Assembly (NCBI GenBank): GCA_963716565.1
Contig: OY970318.1
Span: forward strand, 128,830-192,829
Source: an uncultured Candidatus Saccharibacteria bacterium
GTDB lineage: Bacteria > Patescibacteriota > Saccharimonadia > Saccharimonadales > CAIOMD01
Direction of reading: 5' to 3'
Length of the DNA: 64,000 nucleotides
Shown here: in pieces, positions 1,924-31,579 of the stretch
How the letters are laid out: every line of letters starts with the position of its first letter
Position numbering within the stretch: the first letter of the stretch is position 1
Translations under genes and position numbers: made by a program
The notes under the pieces: generated by a model
Seen by the model: the letters and a program-made list of their open reading frames with translations, nothing else
What the model was told of the DNA's origin: nothing
The model's database searches: none

Positions 1924-2061
1924 CTTAACCAAATATCCAATATTTCTATACTCGGCTAAAATGCTCGAGTGCTATTGAATATTACCTACAAATATGATAT
2001 TATATGTGTGATACTGCCATCGTAACAAATAGCTCGATGAGCTAGGACGCAAGGAGTGGTA

Positions 2062-2367
2062 ATGGTGGCGTATGGAGATTTGCAGACCCAAATAGGGAAC
2101 TGCATCAAGGAGCACCGGTTCGCTGACTTGTGGGATATTTGTGCAAAGCACAGTATCTCGCAGGAAGAGGTCCGGGCTGCGGTTATAGCCTTGGAGGGCA
2201 ACCTGGATGCTGTGGCGTACTACGTCACAAAGAGGGCGCAAGACCAATGTAGCGAAAAGGCCGCCTTAGGGCTGGCCAGGGTCGAGCTCGAAAGCATCAA
2301 AGCCCGTTCGGGCAAAGACCGCCAAGACAAGGGCGACGCGGATCTTCTGATGACGCTCTTGGGCTGA
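2062..2367 (+). CDS. hypothetical protein (G/C-rich orphan)
   Basis: The ORF track gives 2056-2367. ATG 2062 sits 6 nt after SD aaggag. The promoter is TTGAAT-17-TATTAT at about 1974-2002. The ORF is followed by three abutting hairpins at 2398-2471. Confidence 0.5.
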   Translation: MVAYGDLQTQIGNCIKEHRFADLWDICAKHSISQEEVRAAVIALEGNLDAVAYYVTKRAQDQCSEKAALGLARVELESIKARSGKDRQDKGDADLLMTLLG

Positions 2368-2504
2368 CCCAAATGTTCTTGGATCGGCAAGCGTTTGCTG
2401 GGGAGTACATAAACCCCAGAGGCCAACTGTATAAGTTGGCCGCAGTTGCGGCGGGCGAGTGGGCTCGCCGCTATTTAATTTGTTTAAATTTAGTCTACAC
2501 ATAA

Positions 2505-2533
2505 TAGACAATAAGCATATTATCTGGTATAAT
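2505..2533 (+). promoter_or_regulatory. sigma70-type promoter with extended -10 (TAGACA-17-TGgTATAAT)
   Basis: The hexamers and 17-nt spacer were read directly. SD taggagg and GTG 2583 lie downstream. Confidence 0.55.
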
Positions 2534-2582
2534 ATACCTAATACACGTATTCGCCCTGGCAACTACACATTAGGAGGAAACA

Positions 2583-3023
2583 GTGGAGGAATCGTTGTAT
2601 AGCAAGTTGGTGGACGTAGTTCACGATGCTTTTGGGAAACAGCCACTACGTTCAACGGAGTGGCTACGGTTTCTTCAGCAGCATGGTGCGGGCATGTCGG
2701 ACTACTTCAACGCCTACTCGGTGTTAGAAGGTGCCGATGAGATTGCGCTCTACTTGGTGCTAATAGGTGCTGGCTGTTCTAGCGGCGCGGCTCTGGCCGT
2801 TGCACTGGATACTCACCTGTACGCCAAGCTGTACGCTGGCCTGGACGACAACGCCGCTCGGCGGGATAAGAAGTCCGCTAAGGCTTTCGAGCGATCGACA
2901 AGGGTGATCCTGTACGATGCCTTGGCAGCCAACAAGCGTGGCGAGTACGCCAAGCTGTCGGTGCAAGAGCGCCGTCAGTTTGTCACCGAGGTCCTGGCCG
3001 ACTGGGTATCTTCTCGCCAGTAA
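2583..3023 (+). CDS. hypothetical protein (G/C-rich orphan)
   Basis: 146-aa ORF with a GTG start after SD aggagg and strongly G/C-ending codons. No family was recognised. Confidence 0.55.
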   Translation: MEESLYSKLVDVVHDAFGKQPLRSTEWLRFLQQHGAGMSDYFNAYSVLEGADEIALYLVLIGAGCSSGAALAVALDTHLYAKLYAGLDDNAARRDKKSAKAFERSTRVILYDALAANKRGEYAKLSVQERRQFVTEVLADWVSSRQ

Positions 3024-3098
3024 AGGCATCAAGAAGTGCCCGATGCCCAATCTTGCATCACAGACATTTTGCCGGTTTAAGTCTTTAAAAAAACCGGT

Positions 3099-3150
3099 GT
3101 AGTCGTAGATTGTTTTATCTGCCTGACGAGCTCAAAAAGAGCGAAACTAC
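3099..3150 (+). ncRNA. hammerhead ribozyme, type III topology (cleavage predicted after C3104)
   Basis: Reads GUAGUC|GUAGAU-UGUUUU-AUCUGC-CUGACGA-GCUC-AAAAA-GAGC-GAA-ACUAC. The full core is present: CUGANGA, GAA, the A15.1-U16.1 pair and a GUC cleavage triplet. Stems I, II and III have 6, 4 and 5 bp. Confidence 0.85.
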
Positions 3151-3915
3151 CTACTTATGCGTCAAAATAAAGTTAACGGTATCAGAGTATTCTGTTTTTG
3201 CTTTAATTGGCTTTAGCGGCTTTTGGGCCTCTAAGCTAAATGTTAGGGCTGAATTTAAAGAATCTTGCTCGCTGTGTCTTTCTAGCCCCTTTAGCTCATC
3301 AATATTACTTTGTTTTTCTTTATAGCGTTTGATATTGTCAAAGCCCAGCGCTTTTACGGTTTCATCTAAGGCTTCAAAATCCCATAGGTATTTGTGGCCA
3401 AAACCAATGAAGCTGGTGTTTAAAAACTCCGAGCCTAACATTTTATGGCGTTTTTTGTAGATTGGCTTTTTTATATCCGGAACAATTCGCTGCTGGAGTT
3501 TTAAGAAACTTTCCAACACCCTTTTATCTTTATTCACATAGGCTTTACAAATTGCCTCTAAGTCTGGCATAGATATCCGTATTATGCCACCGGGCTTTAA
3601 TACCCTGTATATTTCGTGTAAGTGTTTTACGGTTTGTTCGTAGCTTAGGTGCTCTAAAAAATGTTCCGAAAAAGCGTAATCAATAGAGCTATTTTTAAAT
3701 GGCAACTTTTTTAGGGCGTTAAAATAAACATCACCAGTCCAGATATCTGCTGTTAGCCACCCCGGCTGCTTAACTGGCAGTTCGCCAGGGGCTAAGTGGA
3801 GTTTTCTGACAGCATTGCTGTTTAAATACTCTCTAATTTTAAAATATCTAACCAGATGCCCCTTTTTTAGTTGGTGCTTTATTCTGTTTGATCTATGTAG
3901 CCATTGCCCGGTCAT
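3151..3915 (-). CDS. class I SAM-dependent methyltransferase
   Basis: 254-aa ORF with a Methyltransf_11/23-like motif (LKPGGIIRISMPDLE) and the surrounding Rossmann pattern. Confidence 0.65.
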   Translation of the reverse strand: MTGQWLHRSNRIKHQLKKGHLVRYFKIREYLNSNAVRKLHLAPGELPVKQPGWLTADIWTGDVYFNALKKLPFKNSSIDYAFSEHFLEHLSYEQTVKHLHEIYRVLKPGGIIRISMPDLEAICKAYVNKDKRVLESFLKLQQRIVPDIKKPIYKKRHKMLGSEFLNTSFIGFGHKYLWDFEALDETVKALGFDNIKRYKEKQSNIDELKGLERHSEQDSLNSALTFSLEAQKPLKPIKAKTEYSDTVNFILTHK

Positions 3916-3919
3916 AGGT

Positions 3920-4420
3920 TTACCTATAATTCGTAAACCAGATAGGGAAGTCGTAGTTTTGGTTCCATAACAAGTCTATAACGGCCTGCAACTCATCTTT
4001 CTTAGAGCTCATAACTCGAATTTCTTCGCCTTGAATCTGGGTTTTGACTTTGGGGTATTTATCTCTGATTAAGCTAGTAATTTTTTTGGCTCTTTCTTGG
4101 TCTAATCCGCGTTTTAGGGGCACAATTTTAGTCGTTACAAAATTATTGGTAGTTGGCTCTTTGGATGTATCTAAAACTTTTTGACTTTGTTTTCGTAGAG
4201 CCAGTTTTTTACGCACAATGTCTAAAATGGCATCTAAGTGGAAGTCGTTTTCGCCGATTATTTTTAGAGCCGTTTTGGTATCGTCAACCCATTCTAGGCT
4301 GGATTTGGTATCTTTTAAATCGTATCTATTGGCAATTTCGCGCCGGGCTTGGTCTACCACATTATTAAGCTCGGCCTTATCATAATCACTTACTAAGTCG
4401 AAAGAAAATAAACTGCTCAT
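3920..4420 (-). CDS. yajQ: YajQ family nucleotide/cyclic-di-GMP-binding protein (UPF0234)
   Basis: 166 aa. N-terminal SFDLVSDYDKAELNNVVDQARREIANRYDLK and C-terminal FTNYR are typical of YajQ. Confidence 0.85.
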   Translation of the reverse strand: MSSLFSFDLVSDYDKAELNNVVDQARREIANRYDLKDTKSSLEWVDDTKTALKIIGENDFHLDAILDIVRKKLALRKQSQKVLDTSKEPTTNNFVTTKIVPLKRGLDQERAKKITSLIRDKYPKVKTQIQGEEIRVMSSKKDELQAVIDLLWNQNYDFPIWFTNYR

Positions 4421-4445
4421 ATTGCGATTATACAGGCAACGGCTA

Positions 4446-5960
4446 TTAAGGTGAATATACCGTTATGGTTAGATAGTTATCTTTGTCTCGCAGCTCATTA
4501 GCGGTGTAGGTTTTTGGCAACTCATCTTTCCAGCGGGAATCTTTATCGATGGCTAAAAAGGTGGCATCATCATTCAGGGTGCACGAAGGCGATAAATCAT
4601 TCTTCTGGCTGTAATATGCTATTTGTAAGGGTTTCTGGTTTGTCAAATAATCAATAGTCCACTTGGTATGAAACGTGCTACCTAACACGCAGTACTTATT
4701 TTGTGGATTTTCTAAAATATACTCAGCTGCCTCGCTGGCATTGTAAAAATAAGCTTCCTTGGTTTTATCTGCGACGGCCCATCTTTGAAAATAGCCTGTA
4801 TAGCTAGAATAGGCTGTAAAGAGGTATATAAGGCAGACTGCTGATGGTATCAAAATCTTGAGCATTCGTTGTTTGGCTTTGATATTTAACAGCAGGTTAA
4901 AACCGTAGGCTGTTATGGTGACCAAAAATGGCAAAGCCCCTATGTTTCTTAAATAATGCGGGGCATTATGGTAACCGATAAAGCCGGGCACTAACATTAG
5001 CAACAGCCAGCTGGCGCAAAAAAGAACTTTTTTATCTCGTTTTTTGTATGCCCATACCAAGGCGCCTACAAAAAATGGTGCCACCACGTAAGACAGAGCC
5101 GGTTGGGCAAAGGTATTGTGCCGAGGCTCACCATCGCCTTTTATAAAGAACATAGCTGCCGTTTTGGCAGAAGTAACCGCTACGGCTCTGGGTACAGAAG
5201 GGGCATTTAAGATGCTAATGTCTCCACGAGTTGCAAAATAATCGGGGTGTCTTAGATATGTAGTAGCTATTGGAACCAACACAATCAAGGTAGTTAGCGA
5301 AGCAAGAACTATTGCCTTACGAATTTTTGGACGCTTAAAGAATGCCCATGCGACAAACATCAAAACAAACAAAAAGTAGAATCTGTAAGAGGTGTAAGTA
5401 TAAGCGCCTAGGCCAAAGAATAATCCTGCTAACATTGGCCAAAGTACTAGGCGGGGCTTTTTGTATGCTATACCAGCCATCCATACGGATAGACAAACAA
5501 TTAGCGGAAATAAGTTAGCCCTAAAACCGTCCCGGCTTACGACAATGGCCCATGGCAAGAGGGCATATAACAGGGCCGCTAAAAAGCCGATTCTCTTGCC
5601 AAAAAAATGCTTTACGGCGCAATATAAAACGATTGTTGTAATAATGCCAATGATTGCTGGCGCGATACGTAAGCCAAAAATTGTATTACCAAAGATTAGT
5701 ACCCCGATTGATTGTAAATAAAAAAACAGCGCTTCGCGGTAGCCATTAAGAGGATAAATTGTCTGCCAGTTACCCTTAAATATATTTTGTAAAATATCCA
5801 GCCCATTAGCGGCCTCGTCGCCATATAGACCTGGGGGTGTGGTGTTAAGGTGGTATAACCTAAAAAAACCACTTACAAGCAATAGGACGAGGATAGCAAT
5901 AATTTCTATTTTATGTTTTTTAATATAGCTGTACATCTTTTGCACCTGACGCCCCTCCAA
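4446..5960 (-). CDS. ArnT/GT39-like membrane glycosyltransferase
   Basis: 504-aa polytopic membrane protein with the N-terminal pattern LYHLNTTPPGLYGDEAANG typical of the GT39/GT83 (PMT_2) family. The start is uncertain (5960, 5945 or 5936). Confidence 0.65.
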   Translation of the reverse strand: MEGRQVQKMYSYIKKHKIEIIAILVLLLVSGFFRLYHLNTTPPGLYGDEAANGLDILQNIFKGNWQTIYPLNGYREALFFYLQSIGVLIFGNTIFGLRIAPAIIGIITTIVLYCAVKHFFGKRIGFLAALLYALLPWAIVVSRDGFRANLFPLIVCLSVWMAGIAYKKPRLVLWPMLAGLFFGLGAYTYTSYRFYFLFVLMFVAWAFFKRPKIRKAIVLASLTTLIVLVPIATTYLRHPDYFATRGDISILNAPSVPRAVAVTSAKTAAMFFIKGDGEPRHNTFAQPALSYVVAPFFVGALVWAYKKRDKKVLFCASWLLLMLVPGFIGYHNAPHYLRNIGALPFLVTITAYGFNLLLNIKAKQRMLKILIPSAVCLIYLFTAYSSYTGYFQRWAVADKTKEAYFYNASEAAEYILENPQNKYCVLGSTFHTKWTIDYLTNQKPLQIAYYSQKNDLSPSCTLNDDATFLAIDKDSRWKDELPKTYTANELRDKDNYLTITVYSP

Positions 5961-9900: not shown

Positions 9901-10050
9901 ATGAAACGGCAGCCAACTTGTCAGCACAAAGCCCAAGAGCCAGTGTATTCGCGCTTGTGGCGAAAACGCAAGATCGTTAGGTACCGATGTATCAATTGTG
10001 GCCAGAAGGTACGTGTTCGTAAGATCAGGCGCTATCGCTGCCAGACATAA
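9901..10050 (+). CDS. small basic Cys-containing (zinc-ribbon-like) protein, 49 aa
   Basis: My translation is MKRQPTCQHKAQEPVYSRLWRKRKIVRYRCINCGQKVRVRKIRRYRCQT. It starts 3 nt after the previous stop, preceded by SD aaggaag. It has a CxH...CxxC...C pattern. Confidence 0.4.
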   Translation: MKRQPTCQHKAQEPVYSRLWRKRKIVRYRCINCGQKVRVRKIRRYRCQT

Positions 10051-10059
10051 TTGGCAAGG

Positions 10060-10133
10060 GGCCGTATAGCTCAGTGGCAGAGCGGTCGGGGTAAGACTCG
10101 ATGTCGTCAGCGGTTCGAGCCCGCTTACGGCCA
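10060..10133 (+). tRNA. tRNA-like gene with irregular anticodon arm (identity undetermined)
   Basis: The acceptor (GGCCGUA/UACGGCC), D arm (GCUC-AGUGGCA-GAGC) and T arm (AGCGG-UUCGAGC-CCGCU) are canonical. The anticodon arm folds only as 6 bp with a 6-nt loop (GUAAGA), or as 5 bp with an 8-nt loop (GGUAAGAC). Confidence 0.5.
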
Positions 10134-10159
10134 CCTATGTGGCGGTTGTTTGTTTCGAA

Positions 10160-10232
10160 TGGCGCGTAGCTCAGCCCGGGAGAGCACCCCCTTACAGGGG
10201 GGAGGTCGATGGTTCAAACCCATCCGTGCCCA
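10160..10232 (+). tRNA. tRNA-Val(UAC)-like, with a register anomaly in the anticodon stem
   Basis: The D and T arms are canonical. The sequence GAGC-A-CCCCC-UUACA-GGGGGG-AGGUC resembles tRNA-Val (loop CUUACAG), but has 5 C against 6 G and a U1:C72 mismatch. Confidence 0.6.
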
Positions 10233-10244
10233 TTTTGTAACGTG

Positions 10245-10341
10245 GTGTCTGAAGCTCAGTATTGGCAGCGAGCAACCCAATCATATCCAATTAAAGGAGT
10301 GGAGGGGAAGGAGTTTGCGGGTTCAAGTCCCGCCAGACACA
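10245..10341 (+). tRNA. tRNA-like element or disrupted tRNA (97 nt) lacking a foldable anticodon arm
   Basis: Perfect 7-bp acceptor (GUGUCUG/CAGACAC), a D stem GCUC/GAGC and a T arm GCGGG-UUCAAGU-CCCGC. The 43-nt centre reads ACCCA-AUCAUAU followed by a purine-rich UAAAGGAGUGGAGGGGAAGGAGUUU, and I found no 5-bp stem with a 7-nt loop in it. Confidence 0.35.
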
Positions 10342-10548
10342 CTTTGGTGTTGGTTGTCAGATAAGGTTGAACCAATCTGGCGCCAAACACACCAGCACCA
10401 ACTCGTGGCAGTGACTTCACTAGCCAGCGCGTACTTCCAAGGTACGTAGGCGTTCCTAGCGCCGACCTCAAAGAGGGGGTTGCGCACACAGCGAATCCTA
10501 CCATTCCTATCGTTCGCAACCTTAGCTTACTAGTGATCACTGCCCCCG

Positions 10549-10621
10549 CTTCCTGTAGCTCAGTTGGCAGAGCGCCGCCTTTCTACGGCGGAAGTCGCTG
10601 GTTCGAGTCCAGCCAGGGAGA
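10549..10621 (+). tRNA. tRNA-Arg (anticodon UCU)
   Basis: Fully canonical cloverleaf: acceptor CUUCCUG/CAGGGAG, anticodon arm CCGCC-UUUCUAC-GGCGG, variable loop AAGUC, T arm GCUGG-UUCGAGU-CCAGC. Confidence 0.9.
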
Positions 10622-10912
10622 CCTCGGCGCGTGGGAGACCCCTTTCCTCCGAACAACACGTGTCGAATGCTGCTATGGGTGGCCAGCCCAATAGCAGCGG
10701 CTTCTTCAAGTCCGAGGTGGGCGCTGTTCTGATCTTTGTCCACGGTACAATGTGACAATCCAGACAGCGCCCCTTTGGGCTCAATCATACAACACCTGAT
10801 CTTTACCCTAAATCACGAACTTCGCGGTTTGAGGCAAAGAATCAATTTTTACTACATAAAATTATTTGCATAAATAAAAACATTGCTATAATTAGGTCCG
10901 AGAGAGGGATTT

Positions 10913-19943: not shown

Positions 19944-20036
19944 AATTTAAGTATAACCCCATTCTGTAGATTCTATCGCCTATCGTCCATTGTCCAACGT
20001 CTGATTATGTGTTAAAATAACAACCGAAGGCAAAGA

Positions 20037-20061: not shown

Positions 20062-21885
20062 ATGATAGATACTACCCACATTCGAAACATTGCCATTATT
20101 GCGCACGTAGACCATGGTAAAACTACCATTGTTGATGCGCTTTTAAAGCAAAGCCACACTTTTAGAGCCAACCAGGCCGAAATGCAGGCCAATCTTATTT
20201 TAGACAGTGGCGACCAAGAACGAGAACGTGGCATTACTATTCGCGCCAAGCAAACGGCCATTAACTACAATGGTTACCATATTAATATTATCGATACTCC
20301 CGGCCACGCCGATTTTAGCGGTGAAGTGGAGCGGACTCTAAACATGGCTGATGGCTGTTTGCTGATTGTAGATGCCCAAGAAGGCCCTATGCCACAAACC
20401 AAATTCGTACTAAAAAAAGCTCTGCAAACCGGCCTAAAGCCCATCGTTATCATTAACAAAATAGATAAAAAAGACGCTCGTATTCATAAAGTAGAAGACG
20501 AAATCGCCGATTTATTTTTAGAACTTGCTAGCGACGAAAGCCAGTTGCATTACTCGGTATTTTACGCTGTTGGCCGTCAGGGCAAAGCTTGGGACACTAA
20601 GCCAGACGATATGGATTCTAAGGCTGATATGAGCGTTATTTTTGACGCTGTAATTGCCGAAATCCCTTGCCCCAGCGGCGAGCTAGATAAACCATTCCAA
20701 ATGTTAATTACGGCCCTAGCCTGGGACAGTTTTTTGGGTAAATACGCTATTGGCCGTATTGCTAGGGGCAGTTTAAAAAGTGGCCAACAATTAAAACTTA
20801 TTAAAAAAGACGGGCGAGTAGTTAATACCAAAGCCGATAAGATTTTTATTAATCAAGGTTTAGCCAAAGCCGAAGTTGGCGAAGCCACCACCGGCGACAT
20901 TATATCTGTTACGGGCATAGCCGATGCTCAAATTGGCGAAACCATTGCCGATTATGATAACCCTGAAGCCTTGCCGGTAATTTTGGTAGAAGAGCCAACC
21001 CTAAAGATCACGCTTTTACCCAATAGTTCGCCATTTAAGGGTCAGGAGGGTGAATTCACTACTTCGCGCCAGATAGATAACCGGCTTAAACAAGAACTAG
21101 AAACTAACGTTGGGTTGCGTGTTGAACCGGATGGAGTAGGCTTTTTGGTGAGTGGCCGTGGCGAATTGCACTTAAGCGTGCTAATAGAAGCTATGCGCCG
21201 TGAGGGATTTGAATTCGAAGTTGGTAAGCCACACGTTGTTTTAAAAGAAGTCGATGGTAAAACTTGCGAGCCAGTAGAAGAGCTAACCATAGAAGTGCCA
21301 GACGATTACGTGGGCACTGTTCAGCAACAGCTTGGAGCCCGTAGGGCAGAGTTTATTCGCCAAGATGCTACTGGCACGGGTATTGCTCGCTTAGAATATA
21401 AAATCACTACTCGTTCATTGCTTGGTTTGCGTAACATTTTGCTGACCGCTACAAGAGGCACAGTTAATATGTATAGCTTAATGCTTGGCTACCAGCCAGT
21501 GGGCTCTAATTTAGCTAGCTCGCGCAACGGTGCCCTAATTGCCTGGGAAACCGGTGTTGCCACGGCTTACGCTCTGCAAACGGCCGAACAAAGAGGTATT
21601 TGTTTTATTGCTCCTGGCGTAAAAGTCTACGCCGGTCAAGTAGTTGGCTTAAATAGCCGAGCCGACGATATGGACATTAACGTGGTAAAAGAAAAACACC
21701 TAACTAATATGCGCTCTTCAAGCAGCGATGGTACCGTGCAGCTAACTCCGCCAGTAACGTTTAGCCTAGAGCAATCCCTAGATTTTATAGAAGATGACGA
21801 GTATTTAGAAGTTACGCCTAAATCTTTACGTATTCGTAAAAAGATTTTAGACCCCAACATGCGCAAGCGTGCCCCGAAGCAATAA
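20062..21885 (+). CDS. typA: translational GTPase TypA/BipA
   Basis: G-domain motifs [17 protein letters not shown] and NKID, plus EF-G-like domains and a BipA-type C-terminus. Confidence 0.95.
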
Positions 21886-22477: not shown

Positions 22478-22565
22478 TACGCACTCCAAGGGGTAGACAA
22501 AAGGGCTACAATGTGTAATAATAGCTTTGTTCATTGTTGGCAAAAAATGCACCCAAGGGGGTCTC

Positions 22566-22814
22566 GTGAACGACTTAATAGAGGTCAGTCACATCCTGTT
22601 CGCCATAGCTCTGATCGCGCTTGGCCTCGTCGTTTTTCTTAGTTTTGCCTGGCTTGTTGGCAAGTTCATCTCCAAGATATCGGGCGATGAGGAGAATGAC
22701 AAGAGAGAGCGCAGGGTCGCAGCCAAGGTGATCGTCGCCTGTGCGCTAGTGTTTGCGGTGTCTCTTGGCTTGGGCTGGCTACTGTACTACCTAGGTGGTG
22801 GTACGGCAACATAG
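22566..22814 (+). CDS. hypothetical two-TM membrane protein (G/C-rich orphan)
   Basis: The in-frame GTG at 22566 follows SD aaggggg; the ORF track starts at 22527. Codons are G/C-ending. Confidence 0.45.
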   Translation: MNDLIEVSHILFAIALIALGLVVFLSFAWLVGKFISKISGDEENDKRERRVAAKVIVACALVFAVSLGLGWLLYYLGGGTAT

Positions 22815-22873
22815 CTGGCAGTGCCACTGGGCACCACCAAACTTCTGAGCTTTGGGCGACCAATGAACAAAAG

Positions 22874-23798: not shown

Positions 23799-23867
23799 TT
23801 CTATGGGCTTAGTAAAGAGTTCGGCGTTGTGCCTAAGCTGACGAGGCCAAAAGGCTTAAAAAACAGA
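23799..23867 (+). repeat. degenerate hammerhead copy, a direct repeat of the 26015-26073 ribozyme
   Basis: Positions 23827-23867 (ttgtgcctaagCTGACGAggccaaaaggctTAAaaaacaga) align with 26031-26071. G12 is changed to U, the nucleotide at the H17 position is G, the 5' strand of stem III has diverged, and loop I carries an insertion. Confidence 0.6.
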
Positions 23868-23923: not shown

Positions 23924-24238
23924 ATGGAAACACTCGAACAAGAGAAAACTAACCAGTATCGTCGAGCAAGCGCCTTTTGTATGCTTGGCTGTGACGCTTG
24001 CGATGCAATGCTAGGCAAAGAATGTAAGCCAACACTGAGTCTGGATGGTAGTGGTATTTACTGCCACAGGCAAAGCAAAGAGGTCACATTCACGGCCCTA
24101 GATGCTCATCAACAAGTTTTTGGTAAGCCAGCTAGATTGCTAGAAGAAAAAGCCCAACTTATAAGTAGGATATTCGGCCACCTAGAAATGCCCAAAGAAC
24201 CCGAAGCGCCAAAAGATTCGACAGAGCAAGTTTTATAA
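23924..24238 (+). CDS. hypothetical Cys-rich protein
   Basis: 104 aa containing CMLGCDACDAMLGKEC...YCH. Preceded by the TTGCTT promoter motif at 23884, with an AT-rich -10 about 8-10 nt before the ATG. Confidence 0.5.
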   Translation: METLEQEKTNQYRRASAFCMLGCDACDAMLGKECKPTLSLDGSGIYCHRQSKEVTFTALDAHQQVFGKPARLLEEKAQLISRIFGHLEMPKEPEAPKDSTEQVL

Positions 24239-24981: not shown

Positions 24982-25015
24982 CACTTTCGTTGAGATTACT
25001 CCGAAGGTGTTTTTT
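24982..25015 (+). terminator. rho-independent terminator after the hlyIII-family gene (or first hairpin of the downstream leader)
   Basis: CACUUUCG-12 nt-CGAAGGUG hairpin followed by U6. Confidence 0.7.
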
Positions 25016-25146
25016 GACAAGTAGGAAACGCAAAATGAGAGGCAAGGGCTTGGTTGCAAGCTTTTGCTCCTCATTTTGCGCTTCTCATAGGGAGAGGCCA
25101 ATAAGCTAAGGCTTGGGCGCTCGCCCAGTGAGGAGAAGGGGAAAAT

Positions 25147-25689
25147 ATGAATCTGCTATTGGACGTCAAAGGTGAGATGGTGGTTTTCGGCAAAAGCCTA
25201 GGCGACACCTTTCCTGAATGGGTGAAGGACGCCAAGGCGCTGGCCTATACCCAAGGGCATCAGTACGCGATGTTCGTGTATGAGGGCATCATAGTACGGG
25301 CGAGCCTGGGCTCAAGTTCCGAGCTCTTACTGCGCGATGTGCGGCGAGCGCGGTATGGTCATCTTGGTAACGCGGTGGGGCCGAAGTGCTGTGAGCATCT
25401 CACCGACGAGGACCTGCAGGAGGACGAGCTGGCCAGGGCTGCGTACGACGTCAACCATATCTTCACCTTGCTCATGGGCCTCATCAGTGAAGAGGTCCGT
25501 GCGGAATTGGATCGGGAGAACGTCGTGGCGTCCGGTATCAAAGGTGAACGGATCAAGCAGACGACTCGCCTAGTCCTTTCTATGAAGGACTTGGCCCGGC
25601 TCAGCATCCGGCTCGAAAGAGCGCAAGCAGGCGCCCAAGCCCAAGAGGTGGCTAAAGCCGAACCGGTCGCCGAAACGGTGGCGTCTTGA
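25147..25689 (+). CDS. hypothetical protein (G/C-rich orphan)
   Basis: 180 aa with SD gaggag and strongly G/C-ending codons. No family was recognised. Confidence 0.55.
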   Translation: MNLLLDVKGEMVVFGKSLGDTFPEWVKDAKALAYTQGHQYAMFVYEGIIVRASLGSSSELLLRDVRRARYGHLGNAVGPKCCEHLTDEDLQEDELARAAYDVNHIFTLLMGLISEEVRAELDRENVVASGIKGERIKQTTRLVLSMKDLARLSIRLERAQAGAQAQEVAKAEPVAETVAS

Positions 25690-25943
25690 ACGCCAAGCCA
25701 AAGTCGGCGTTGGTAACGGCCGGCTACAACGCGTTCTACGTACGTGCTGGTGTTCGGCTCGAAGACGCTCTGCGTGAAGCGGCGTCTGTGTCGGCCCAAG
25801 TGTGCAATCTGGTGACTGTTGTGTTCAACAATCGACCGCTTGCGATCGATACGACGACTGACGTCGAGAAGCTTCTAATAGCCGAAGGCCTAGACGGCAA
25901 TGCCGTTTCTTCGGACGTTTCTCGACGAAACGCTCACGCCTGA
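25686..25943 (+). CDS. hypothetical protein (G/C-rich orphan)
   Basis: 85 aa. The TTG start overlaps the upstream stop (TTGA), suggesting translational coupling. An 11-bp hairpin follows at about 25965-25994. Confidence 0.45.
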   Translation: MNAKPKSALVTAGYNAFYVRAGVRLEDALREAASVSAQVCNLVTVVFNNRPLAIDTTTDVEKLLIAEGLDGNAVSSDVSRRNAHA

Positions 25944-26014
25944 CCCCTCCCGGTTTTCAAAAGGGCGTAGTGGCCACCAACCACTACGCCCTATGCCGGT
26001 CTCCTACTTGTCAA

Positions 26015-26073
26015 TATCTGTTTACTTAAGTGTGCGCTTAAGCTGACGAGGTCAAAAGGCCGAAAAACAGATA
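26015..26073 (+). ncRNA. hammerhead ribozyme, type III topology (cleavage predicted after A26024)
   Basis: Reads UAUCUGUUUA|CUUAAG-UGUGCG-CUUAAG-CUGACGA-GGUC-AAAA-GGCC-GAA-AAACAGAUA. The full core is present. Stems I, II and III have 6, 4 and 9 bp, and all three covary with the 3099 copy. Confidence 0.85.
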
Positions 26074-26113: not shown

Positions 26114-26752
26114 ATGAGCATTATTTGTCCCACAATCCTAGCCAAAGATGAAGCCGATTTTAAAATTCAAATAGATAAAGTGGCTGGCTTTGCCAAGCGT
26201 ATTCAGATTGATTTAGAAGATGGTGTATTTGCTCCTAGCCAAAGTATTCCACTGGCCAAAGTTTGGTGGCCCAATGGTATCGAAGCCGACATTCACGTAA
26301 TGTACCAAAACCCCCAAGACTATCTAGAAACACTCATAAAACTTAAACCCAGCATGGTAATTGTGCACGCCGAAAGCACCTGTGATATTCCCAAACTGGC
26401 TGCCGATTTAAGAGTCGCCGGAATTAAAACGGGCCTAGCAATTTTGCAGCCAACTACTATTGATTCGGTAAAGTATATATTCCCGCACGTTCAGCATCTA
26501 TTAATCTTTAGTGGTGATTTGGGCCATTTCGGCGGCGTAGTCGACATGAGTTTAACCAGTAAAATCACCGAAGCTAAAACCGCTCACCAATATCTAGAGA
26601 TCGGTTGGGATGGTGGTATCACCGCCGAAAACGCCAAAGAGCTGGCCGAAGCCGGCGTAGATGTTCTAAATGTAGGCGGTGCCATCCAGAATGCTGATAA
26701 TCCACAAGAGGCTTATGCTAAAATAGTATCAAGTCTAAGTGGGCAAAAATAA
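26114..26752 (+). CDS. rpe: ribulose-phosphate 3-epimerase
   Basis: 212-aa TIM-barrel Rpe pattern (ICPTILA...IQIDLEDG...VIVHAES...GWDGGI). Confidence 0.8.
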   Translation: MSIICPTILAKDEADFKIQIDKVAGFAKRIQIDLEDGVFAPSQSIPLAKVWWPNGIEADIHVMYQNPQDYLETLIKLKPSMVIVHAESTCDIPKLAADLRVAGIKTGLAILQPTTIDSVKYIFPHVQHLLIFSGDLGHFGGVVDMSLTSKITEAKTAHQYLEIGWDGGITAENAKELAEAGVDVLNVGGAIQNADNPQEAYAKIVSSLSGQK

Positions 26753-30661: not shown

Positions 30662-30691
30662 CATCATCTAACCTGCTGGAAGAAAATGTTG
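30662..30691 (+). repeat. 30-nt direct repeat, copy A
   Basis: catcatctaacctgctggaagaaaatgttg matches 31550-31579 (caacatctaaactgctggaagaaaacgttg) at 27 of 30 positions. Confidence 0.7.
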
Positions 30692-30819: not shown

Positions 30820-30867
30820 AATCTAATCTGGGTTATTGTACAAGCGTTCTTTAGTTAGGAGGCAGGG

Positions 30868-31440
30868 TTGAAAACGTCAACACTTGAAGCACTAATGGGC
30901 AAGATGGACGAGAACCCAAAGGTCTACCGGGTCGGGTCTACCGTTCCCAGTAGGCTTACGTGGGGTGACACCCGTGTGTTCGGGCAGGTGTTTGTTGCAC
31001 CGCAGCACTGTGGTGCTGGTGCGGCAGATGGTCTGTACAAGGTCGAGGCCTTGAATGGCTTCATGAAGGGCCTCATCCCGACCGATCACAGGCCTGTGGA
31101 AGAGATGCCCTTTATCGAAGAGGGCGGGAGTCTGTCGTTTGGCTGGATGGAGTTCGTTCAGGTTGTAGCACGGTCTCGCCGCGAGCTAACTCTCGTCCAA
31201 CTGACCAAGGACTTGGCACTTCCCGTGTTCAAAGCGGGCGACGAGAAGGGCAAGGAAGAAGGCAACGATCTGGTCAAGTCCTCTGAGGCCACTGACGTCG
31301 AGCTGGTTGTAAGGGTTTGCTGCTTTCCGGACGTGACTCTGGCCAAGAAGGCCATCAAGACCGACAAGACGAGCATCCAAAGCGCCTCTCTCTTTCGGTA
31401 CCAGCAACGGCTCGATAACGTCCTCAAGGGCCTCTTCTAG
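30868..31440 (+). CDS. hypothetical protein (G/C-rich orphan)
   Basis: 190 aa. TTG start 7 nt after SD aggagg. G/C-ending codons. No family was recognised. Confidence 0.55.
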   Translation: MKTSTLEALMGKMDENPKVYRVGSTVPSRLTWGDTRVFGQVFVAPQHCGAGAADGLYKVEALNGFMKGLIPTDHRPVEEMPFIEEGGSLSFGWMEFVQVVARSRRELTLVQLTKDLALPVFKAGDEKGKEEGNDLVKSSEATDVELVVRVCCFPDVTLAKKAIKTDKTSIQSASLFRYQQRLDNVLKGLF

Positions 31441-31476
31441 CCCACTGCGGCCACCGCCAAGAACCACCCGGAGTTG

Positions 31477-31516
31477 CCCGGTACGTCTAAAAAACGTACC
31501 GGGCTCTTCATTTTTA
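31477..31516 (+). terminator. rho-independent terminator
   Basis: 10-bp hairpin CCCGGUACGU/ACGUACCGGG followed by a U-rich tract (CUCUUCAUUUUUA). Confidence 0.8.
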
Positions 31517-31549
31517 TGGCCCAAAATCCACCATCTAACGTCTATCGTC

Positions 31550-31579
31550 CAACATCTAAACTGCTGGAAGAAAACGTTG
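31550..31579 (+). repeat. 30-nt direct repeat, copy B
   Basis: See copy A. It lies immediately upstream of the pfkB-family gene promoter (TTGAAT-17/18-TATACT at 31586-31615). Confidence 0.7.

Follow-up and report, generated by a model that had tools for sequence, protein, structure and literature searches.

The locus described here raises the question of what a self-cleaving ribozyme does behind a small chromosomal gene. Bacterial and phage DNA contains hundreds of identified hammerhead ribozymes whose biological role has yet to be settled (PMC6765202); the bacterial examples adjoin short gene blocks, and mRNA processing has been proposed as a function that is as yet unproven (PMC3088659, PMC6765202). 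The DNA analyzed, called the window throughout, comprises 64,000 nucleotides (nt) of the 799-kb contig OY970318.1 (GCA_963716565.1, positions 128,830-192,829) from an uncultured Candidatus Saccharibacteria bacterium. The element in question, HH-A, is a type III hammerhead motif on the plus strand in the 3' untranslated region (UTR) of a gene designated c1d (table 1). Overall, the favored reading is that HH-A is a hammerhead kept by selection in the c1d 3' UTR, where it would do the job of a terminator (probability roughly 0.65). Taken separately, it is very probable that HH-A represents a true hammerhead of type III maintained by selection, and the odds are about even that its specific role is to form a 3' end and act as a firewall against read-through.

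Read from the plus strand, the 52 nt of HH-A are GUAGU-C-GUAGAU(UGUUUU)AUCUGC-CUGACGA-GCUC(AAAAA)GAGC-GAA-ACUAC. An earlier note on this DNA had claimed a complete type III hammerhead at this position, and reading of the sequence confirmed every invariant position, every helix and the GUC site. Three helices are arranged around the core (helices I and II closed, helix III open) with base pairs directly flanking it, and the A15.1:U16.1 and G10.1:C11.1 pairs correspond to A3146:U3103 and G3130:C3142. The surroundings had also been described correctly: 76 nt separate the stop codon of the upstream open reading frame (ORF) 2583-3023, which is c1d, from HH-A; the 7-bp hairpin CCGGUUU/AAACCGG (3072-3078/3091-3097) ends 1 nt before stem III; and the stop codon (3151-3153) of a convergent methyltransferase ORF (3151-3915, minus strand) directly abuts the ribozyme. 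The upstream ORF is G/C-rich as stated, with a GC content of 0.57 overall and of 0.66 at third codon positions (GC3), compared with a GC3 of 0.37-0.44 in host genes. The label "orphan" was nearly right for this ORF, except that exhaustive HMMER and profile searches of approximately 15 billion proteins find five homologues, which gives a c1d family of six members.

The resemblance of HH-A to a hammerhead was compared with expectation by chance. A type III descriptor that demands the core, H17, the A15.1:U16.1 pair and minimal helices matched none of 400 simulated windows (both strands; first-order Markov sequences built from the dinucleotide transition frequencies of the window) and two sites in the real window, HH-A and 26020-26068. 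The search with Rfam model RF00008 that the earlier note had asked for returned an end-to-end alignment of HH-A with 36.5 bits (E = 1.9e-6 on 351 nt and 3.4e-4 window-wide for all 4227 families). In a context of 137 nt the minimum free energy (MFE) structure of HH-A is the canonical three-way junction, and the hairpin CCGGUUU/AAACCGG also forms in the MFE fold.

Evidence for selection comes from L001, a 1-kb metagenome contig of the Joint Genome Institute that carries a partial c1d homologue (72% identical) followed by the same hairpin and hammerhead (positions 344-395, 36.0 bits with RF00008). The c1d ORFs of the window and L001 are 75.8% identical in DNA over 88 codons and their differences by codon position (20/12/32) form a coding pattern, which marks the ORF as a real gene. 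The two hammerheads differ at 10 of 52 positions: five of the changes lie in loops, one is at the free position N7 (CUGACGA in HH-A, CUGAUGA in L001, the only difference in the core), and four are helical, every one of which preserves pairing. In stem I a U.G pair is replaced by U-A and an A-U pair by G.U, in stem II a double change turns C-G into U-A, and no pair is broken. Among random variants of HH-A with 10 substitutions only 0.012% (1.2e-4) still obey the hammerhead rules. Furthermore, the 3' UTR contains an ultra-conserved block in which 55 out of 55 aligned bases are the same in the window and L001, apart from one 2-nt loop indel; identity between the two is approximately 76% elsewhere, and by our own arithmetic 0.77^55 is approximately 6e-7.

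L001 also establishes on which strand the constraint acts. Positions 393-466 of L001 run on into window positions 3921-3994, the flank of the convergent DUF520 gene, at 74% identity, and the two loci are therefore orthologous. The DUF520 protein of the window ends in …ELQAVIDLLWNQNYDFPIWFTNYR*, and the minus strand of L001 holds a remnant of the DUF520 C-terminus (…ELQAVMDLLRQQNFDFAIQFTNYR*) that is broken by a stop further upstream. The convergent gene in L001 is thus dead (truncated and stop-interrupted) yet the hairpin and the hammerhead are intact, which places the constraint on the plus strand. Movement of gene and ribozyme as a cassette into an unrelated context was considered and rejected, as the similarity to L001 resumes in DUF520 and it is the methyltransferase that intervenes in the window. 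The methyltransferase segment is flanked by a 6-nt direct repeat, TACCTA (3148-3153 and 3921-3926), and the methyltransferase stop codon derives from the left copy. The abutment of HH-A and this stop codon is accordingly the result of a later insertion of the methyltransferase at the junction of ribozyme and DUF520, and the ancestral order reconstructed from the sequences is c1d, hairpin, hammerhead and convergent DUF520, with the DUF520 stop overlapping stem III. The methyltransferase lies 4 nt after DUF520, a spacing that makes co-transcription of the two probable; no relatives of it were found in the genome-collection scan.

HH-A belongs to a wider class of similar elements. A search of metagenomes with a pattern that fixed only GUAGUC, CUGANGAG and CGAAACUAC (core and stem III) matched 30 contigs. 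In approximately 24 of them stems I and II are formed by 3-7 bp even though the pattern did not demand pairing there, whereas the obvious coding-sequence matches have stems of 0-2 bp. In an alignment of 21 sequences 99.4% of the cells are paired and 83 double changes are present compared with 22 in shuffles; this set was preselected for pairing, so that the informative figure is the paired fraction of the raw matches. Stem III is invariant in all comparison data, and the first U of loop 1 and the last A of loop 2 in HH-A match the consensus (at least 70%) of the comparison set. Twenty-one environmental type III hammerheads served to build a covariance model, R1, which gives HH-A, itself in the training set, 61.6 bits. 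A weak R1 match at 20107-20157 was dismissed as chance because it lies inside a GTPase coding region.

The second descriptor match belongs to another complete type III hammerhead, HH-B. The hammerheads used for R1 share a stem III unlike that of HH-B, on which the model was not trained, and R1 scores HH-B with 26.6 bits (E = 3.2e-4 window-wide); in Rfam it has only an HH9 match of 14 bits. The layout is the same as at HH-A: HH-B lies behind a GC-rich gene pair, the overlapping orphan ORFs 25147-25689 and 25686-25943, and downstream of a 12-bp hairpin. The gene that precedes HH-B has no homologues at all. A third, decayed copy, HH-C, equals HH-B at 21 of 22 nt over the core and stem II, has U in place of G12 and G at the cleavage-site position, and is located in an AT-rich spacer upstream of ORF 23924-24238 with no adjoining GC-rich gene. 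An HH-B-like pattern found twice in viral contigs was discarded after one match, L035, was checked and had stems of 2 and 1 bp.

The same kind of arrangement occurs on contig L019 (38% GC), where behind a 53%-GC MOSC-domain gene lie first a short hairpin, which abuts stem III, and then the hammerhead. Complementarities between the 5' and 3' ends in L019 are at chance level by our own estimate. On two unrelated contigs the hammerhead is located exactly at a sharp boundary between GC-rich and AT-rich DNA (L019 9878-10429 and L027 1986-2037), with a GC step from 62% to 36% at the hammerhead of L027. PheS, encoded 2.9 kb from HH-A, is 59-71% identical to the proteins of 80 species representatives, nearly all Candidatus Saccharibacteria/Saccharimonadales, and neither the descriptor nor a covariance model detected a type III hammerhead in 1.33 Mb from these 80 relatives. 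Approximately 58 of the 80 loci share the gene arrangement RmuC, variable gap, DUF520, PheS, with a GH63-like gene usually occupying the gap; the small genes of the window, the methyltransferase and the PMT_2 gene are absent from all these RmuC-PheS loci.

What HH-A might do is suggested by the 3' ends of the c1d family. Small, fast-evolving and GC-rich, c1d is regarded as an accessory gene; its product is predicted to be all-helical and has no Pfam, PHROG or PADLOC match, and an AlphaFold model made without an alignment was unusable (predicted local distance difference test score 44). No terminator-like site was called between the c1d stop codon and HH-A. The more distant homologues on contigs L117 and L118 end in intrinsic terminators: the L117 homologue ends in GCGGUAAGCGAGUGGGCCUUACCGC plus U6, the L118 homologue is followed by a GC hairpin and a T-run that was called as a terminator, and neither has a hammerhead. 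The gene order in L118 is a c1b homologue (86% amino acid identity), a GH63-like gene, the c1d homologue and PheS. In P0006 the next gene begins 29 nt past the stop of the c1d homologue, leaving no room for a ribozyme. In P0007, represented by contigs of runs ERR15459707 and ERR12035931, the c1d homologue (28% protein identity) is again part of this island, and 126 nt separate it from the convergent YajQ/DUF520 gene, which parallels the 127 nt between the c1d stop and the convergent stop codon in the window. Hammerhead and intrinsic terminator thus share one position in different lineages of the c1d family. The gene is no recent arrival, as it occurs in synteny within the RmuC-PheS island of several genomes. 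A megablast search of window positions 2000-4500 against deposited phages gave no match, and no viral-contig relatives of the c1a or c1d family were found as far as these are searchable. As a separate observation, the terminator behind the window gene c1c closely resembles those behind the c1d homologues (L117 1208-1232, L118 2141-2165), a likeness suggesting that gene/terminator modules were shuffled within the island.

Because the distant homologues end in intrinsic terminators, the ribozyme is proposed to form the 3' end of the c1d mRNA and to sever read-through RNA. Transcription of c1d would start from the promoter-like site upstream and pass through the conserved hairpin at 3072-3097, which lacks a U-tract and is therefore not a canonical terminator. 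HH-A would then cleave itself after C3104 once synthesized, leaving a c1d mRNA that ends in hairpin-UGUAGUC with a 2',3'-cyclic phosphate and the hairpin 8 nt from its 3' end. The downstream RNA, antisense to the convergent methyltransferase and DUF520 genes, would be detached with a 5'-OH. The 5'-OH product of glmS cleavage is cleared by the 5'-3' exonuclease RNase J, and by this precedent the downstream fragment would presumably be degraded. HH-A would in this way stand in for the intrinsic terminator of other family members. Such a role agrees with the 55-nt conservation, with the terminators of the homologues and with the intact element beside a dead gene in L001, and it is in line with what has been proposed for bacterial hammerheads (PMC3088659, PMC6765202).

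Several observations weigh against this proposal. The RF00008 score of HH-A is below the gathering score of the family (48.5 bits), a threshold that is a curation choice and not a structural criterion; for this reason a default Rfam scan of the window listed tRNAs only and HH-A was seen only in a permissive scan. The MFE structure of the isolated 52-mer is an alternative with an extended stem I and not the active fold, and stem III is short (5 bp). A loop or bulge tertiary contact between stems I and II matters for fast hammerhead cleavage at physiological Mg2+. Four pairs are possible between loop 1 and loop 2 of HH-A and up to five in L001 (UAUUUC/GAGUA), but complementarity over the 20 sequences of the comparison set (2.7) is no better than in shuffles (2.48), and a loop-loop pseudoknot (UUUU/AAAA) is at most a candidate contact. 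The DNA comparison of the HH-A locus rests on L001 as the single independent orthologue. At HH-B and in L019 a same-strand gene follows within 31-41 nt. Finally, we infer the transcription of HH-A, its self-cleavage in vivo and the fates of its products from sequence.

The same-strand genes behind HH-B and in L019 raise the possibility that selection acts through the RNA downstream of the ribozyme, and this is the main rival reading. The ribozyme would be active but its processing would serve the downstream RNA or a polycistronic transcript: upstream and next gene would be separated, and the downstream message would carry a defined 5'-OH end and two 5' hairpins, as for prophage hammerheads. 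Processing of operons has been proposed by Perreault et al. 2011 (PMC3088659), and the spacing fits, with HH-B 41 nt upstream of the same-strand rpe-like gene at 26114, a HAD hydrolase gene beginning 31 nt past the L019 hammerhead and the relic HH-C approximately 55 nt upstream of ORF 23924. In the window, however, the gene past HH-A is convergent, and L001 has at this point a dead remnant and behind it a gene that has a promoter-like site of its own. The conserved partner of the ribozyme is therefore the upstream gene with its hairpin, and downstream processing, which fits HH-B and L019 but not HH-A, is considered unlikely as the explanation of this locus.

It is far less probable that the DNA is kept as a terminator or other signal of the minus strand and that the plus-strand hammerhead is incidental. 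The ancestral DUF520 stop overlapped stem III, the antisense structure is followed by ACCGG and U7, and the 55-nt block is perfectly conserved, all of which would fit such a signal; the earlier note had likewise suggested a second use of this DNA as terminator of the convergent gene. A stretch of seven T is indeed present on the minus strand (A-run 3087-3093 on the plus strand), but it is paired or looped inside the CCGG hairpin, no terminator-like site was called on this strand, and the fold is unremarkable (z-score -0.9). The element has stayed intact in L001 although the convergent gene is truncated and stop-interrupted, and the substitutions keep plus-strand G.U pairs and core bases that a minus-strand hairpin does not need. 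With the stop-codon abutment explained by insertion, a bidirectional terminator is not supported.

A comparably improbable reading makes the hammerhead part of a mobile or RNA-replicating element (retrozyme-like, a viroid- or Obelisk-like circle, or a transposable cassette) in which it serves processing or circularization. In its favor are the foreign-looking codon usage of the GC-rich genes (GC3 of 0.59-0.70 in the small genes of the window islands against 0.37-0.44 in host genes), their unusually structured sense RNAs (z-scores of -2.7 to -7.1), the 15/16 inverted repeat that encloses the cassette before HH-B, and the GC boundaries at the L019 and L027 hammerheads. However, there is one ribozyme per unit, and permissive Rfam scans of both strands detected no second ribozyme of any family at the 5' ends of the units. 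A type III cut leaves the upstream RNA with only 6 nt of the ribozyme, so that an element copied from this RNA would lose it. No reverse transcriptase, integrase or transposase is encoded nearby, the HH-A unit has neither bracketing inverted repeats nor flanking direct repeats, and c1d is syntenic in several genomes. A chance resemblance or dead relic, for which the RF00008 score under the gathering threshold and the evidence from HH-C that such elements die in this genome could be cited, is strongly disfavored by the absence of matches in 400 simulated windows, the 10 out of 10 compatible substitutions in L001 (P approximately 1e-4) and the second intact copy, HH-B.

Beyond the selected 3'-UTR hammerhead at c1d, a more general picture is put forward only tentatively: the hammerhead may be a portable, host-independent 3'-end former and insulator of GC3-rich, fast-evolving and unusually structured small-gene units in some Saccharibacteria and in AT-rich genomes like that of L019. 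Intrinsic terminators could take its place and the reverse, and it would in some cases be combined with a RAGATH-10-like translational leader and pairing between the 5' and 3' ends. If true, this would give bacterial hammerheads a concrete and testable function, that of a terminator surrogate and read-through firewall for accessory genes where neighboring genes are convergent or closely spaced.

Table 1. Positions of the hammerheads, their parts and associated features in the window.
Feature	Position	Strand	Description
HH-A, type III hammerhead	3099-3150	+	Sequence reading, descriptor, RF00008 alignment, fold in context
HH-A stem III	3099-3103/3146-3150		5 bp, open end
HH-A C17 (H17)	C3104		GUC triplet; predicted cleavage between 3104 and 3105
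HH-A stem I	3105-3110/3117-3122		6 bp including one U.G
HH-A loop 1	3111-3116		UGUUUU
HH-A core C3 to A9	3123-3129		CUGACGA; all core nucleotides present
HH-A stem II	3130-3133/3139-3142		4 bp
HH-A loop 2	3134-3138		AAAAA
HH-A G12-A13-A14	3143-3145		GAA
Ultra-conserved 3' UTR block	3052-3108	+	Hairpin 3072-3097 and first 10 nt of HH-A
c1d	2583-3023	+	146 amino acids; GC3 0.66; HH-A in its 3' UTR
Promoter-like site	2505-2533	+	TAGACA-17-TATAAT with TG, 11/12; consensus match only
Terminator after gene c1c	2448-2471		GCGGCGGGCGAGUGGGCUCGCCGC; ahead of promoter-like site 2505-2533
Methyltransferase gene segment	3154-3920	-	Inserted between HH-A and DUF520 stop; Pfam Methyltransf_11
HH-B, second complete type III hammerhead	26016-26072	+	Descriptor, model R1
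HH-B stem III			AUCUGUUU/AAACAGAU, 8 bp
HH-B A17	26024		UUA site
HH-B stem I	26025-26031/26036-26042		7 bp
HH-B core	26043-26049		CUGACGA
HH-B stem II			GGUC/GGCC, 4 bp
HH-B GAA	26062-26064		
HH-C, decayed hammerhead-like copy	23819-23864	+	R1 10.4 bits, E = 2.4, not significant
RAGATH-10-like leader of HH-B gene pair	25065-25140	+	RF03147 29 bits, gathering score 41.2

The gene pair in front of HH-B has a leader that matches the RAGATH-10 model over its full length with four helices (E = 7e-4 on 201 nt and 0.24 window-wide), and its outer helix sequesters the GAGGAG ribosome-binding site of ORF 25147. The RAGATH-10 family was delimited by its closeness to genes with which hammerhead and twister ribozymes are associated. 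The assignment of this leader to the family is a lead only.

Further observations concern the GC-rich units of the window. Their small genes have no Pfam, PHROG or PADLOC assignment, with the exception of c1a, which matches a PHROG "secreted protein" family, and c2, which has a weak SieB-like match. The structured sense RNAs mentioned above, to be compared with z-scores of -1.5 to +1.8 in host genes, belong to the units 25014-26014, 22526-22871, 2010-2480 and 30830-31510, and the sense strand is more structured than the antisense strand. End-to-end inverted repeats bracket two of the units (25014-25029/25999-26014, 15/16; 22526-22546/22851-22871, 17/21). Of the four tRNA-like genes in a GC-rich island at 10011-10740 (plus strand), two show abnormal anticodon loops (2-nt "anticodons" according to ARAGORN), one has an insert of approximately 37 nt, and only tRNA-Arg(TCT) at 10549-10623 looks normal. 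A 27-nt direct repeat (25/27; 30665-30691 and 31553-31579) brackets the GC-rich orphan gene 30868-31440, and a heptad-like repeat lies beside it (TCTAACG TCTATCG TCCAAC…, 31534-31552). The heptad-like repeat recurs at 19972-19990 in another promoter region and on L117 at 1270-1294, the right flank of the c1d homologue there, and is probably a host regulatory array.

HH-A was compared with known systems of self-cleaving RNA and of mRNA 3'-end formation. With RF00008 (clan CL00010) it shares the 11-nt core and H17, both key pairs, the open helix III, the GUC triplet and a length of approximately 52 nt. Its stem I and II loops are unlike the viroid and satellite consensus, and it is a single chromosomal copy in Saccharibacteria and not part of a rolling-circle RNA replicon. 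The bacterial and prophage hammerheads described previously (PMC3088659) are likewise DNA-encoded, intergenic and located beside single small genes of variable unknown function, and the 6-bp/4-bp geometry of stems I and II in HH-A is typical of the type III members of that set. In contrast to these, HH-A has no nearby integrase or recognizable prophage, there is one ribozyme per gene instead of flanking pairs or triplets, and HH-A lies in a convergent spacer.

Retrozymes, viroid-like RNAs and Obelisks contain the same ribozyme type, and some are structured RNAs of approximately 1 kb with small ORFs. Their ribozymes excise unit-length RNA by way of repeats or of both polarities, whereas a single ribozyme in a syntenic DNA locus with no repeat or circular signature is present here. 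The RAGATH-10 family (RF03147) is comparable to the leader of the HH-B unit, which fits the whole model with its four helices and GAGGAG 3' end; the score is below the gathering threshold and the similarity concerns the unit of HH-B and not that of HH-A. The glmS ribozyme and 3'-UTR twister ribozymes (PMC6765202) provide precedents for a self-cleaving RNA inside an mRNA that alters stability or expression. However, glmS is ligand-dependent and located in a 5' UTR, and nothing at HH-A suggests regulation.

The intrinsic terminators of L117 and L118 stand where HH-A stands, behind a member of the c1d family, and presumably have the same output, a defined mRNA 3' end. They differ in mechanism: a hairpin with a U-tract releases the polymerase, whereas the ribozyme would cut the RNA while the polymerase continues. 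The c1d family therein offers a natural comparison: within one gene family and one island, a single sub-lineage has a hammerhead behind the gene where others have an ordinary terminator. The HH-A locus, at which the ribozyme is clearly under purifying selection, makes the hypothesis of a terminator surrogate and firewall directly testable. A literature search found no hammerhead report from Saccharibacteria, and HH-A extends the hammerheads to these ultra-small epibiotic bacteria with very compact genomes. HH-A adds a further member to an established ribozyme class and is not a new kind of RNA.

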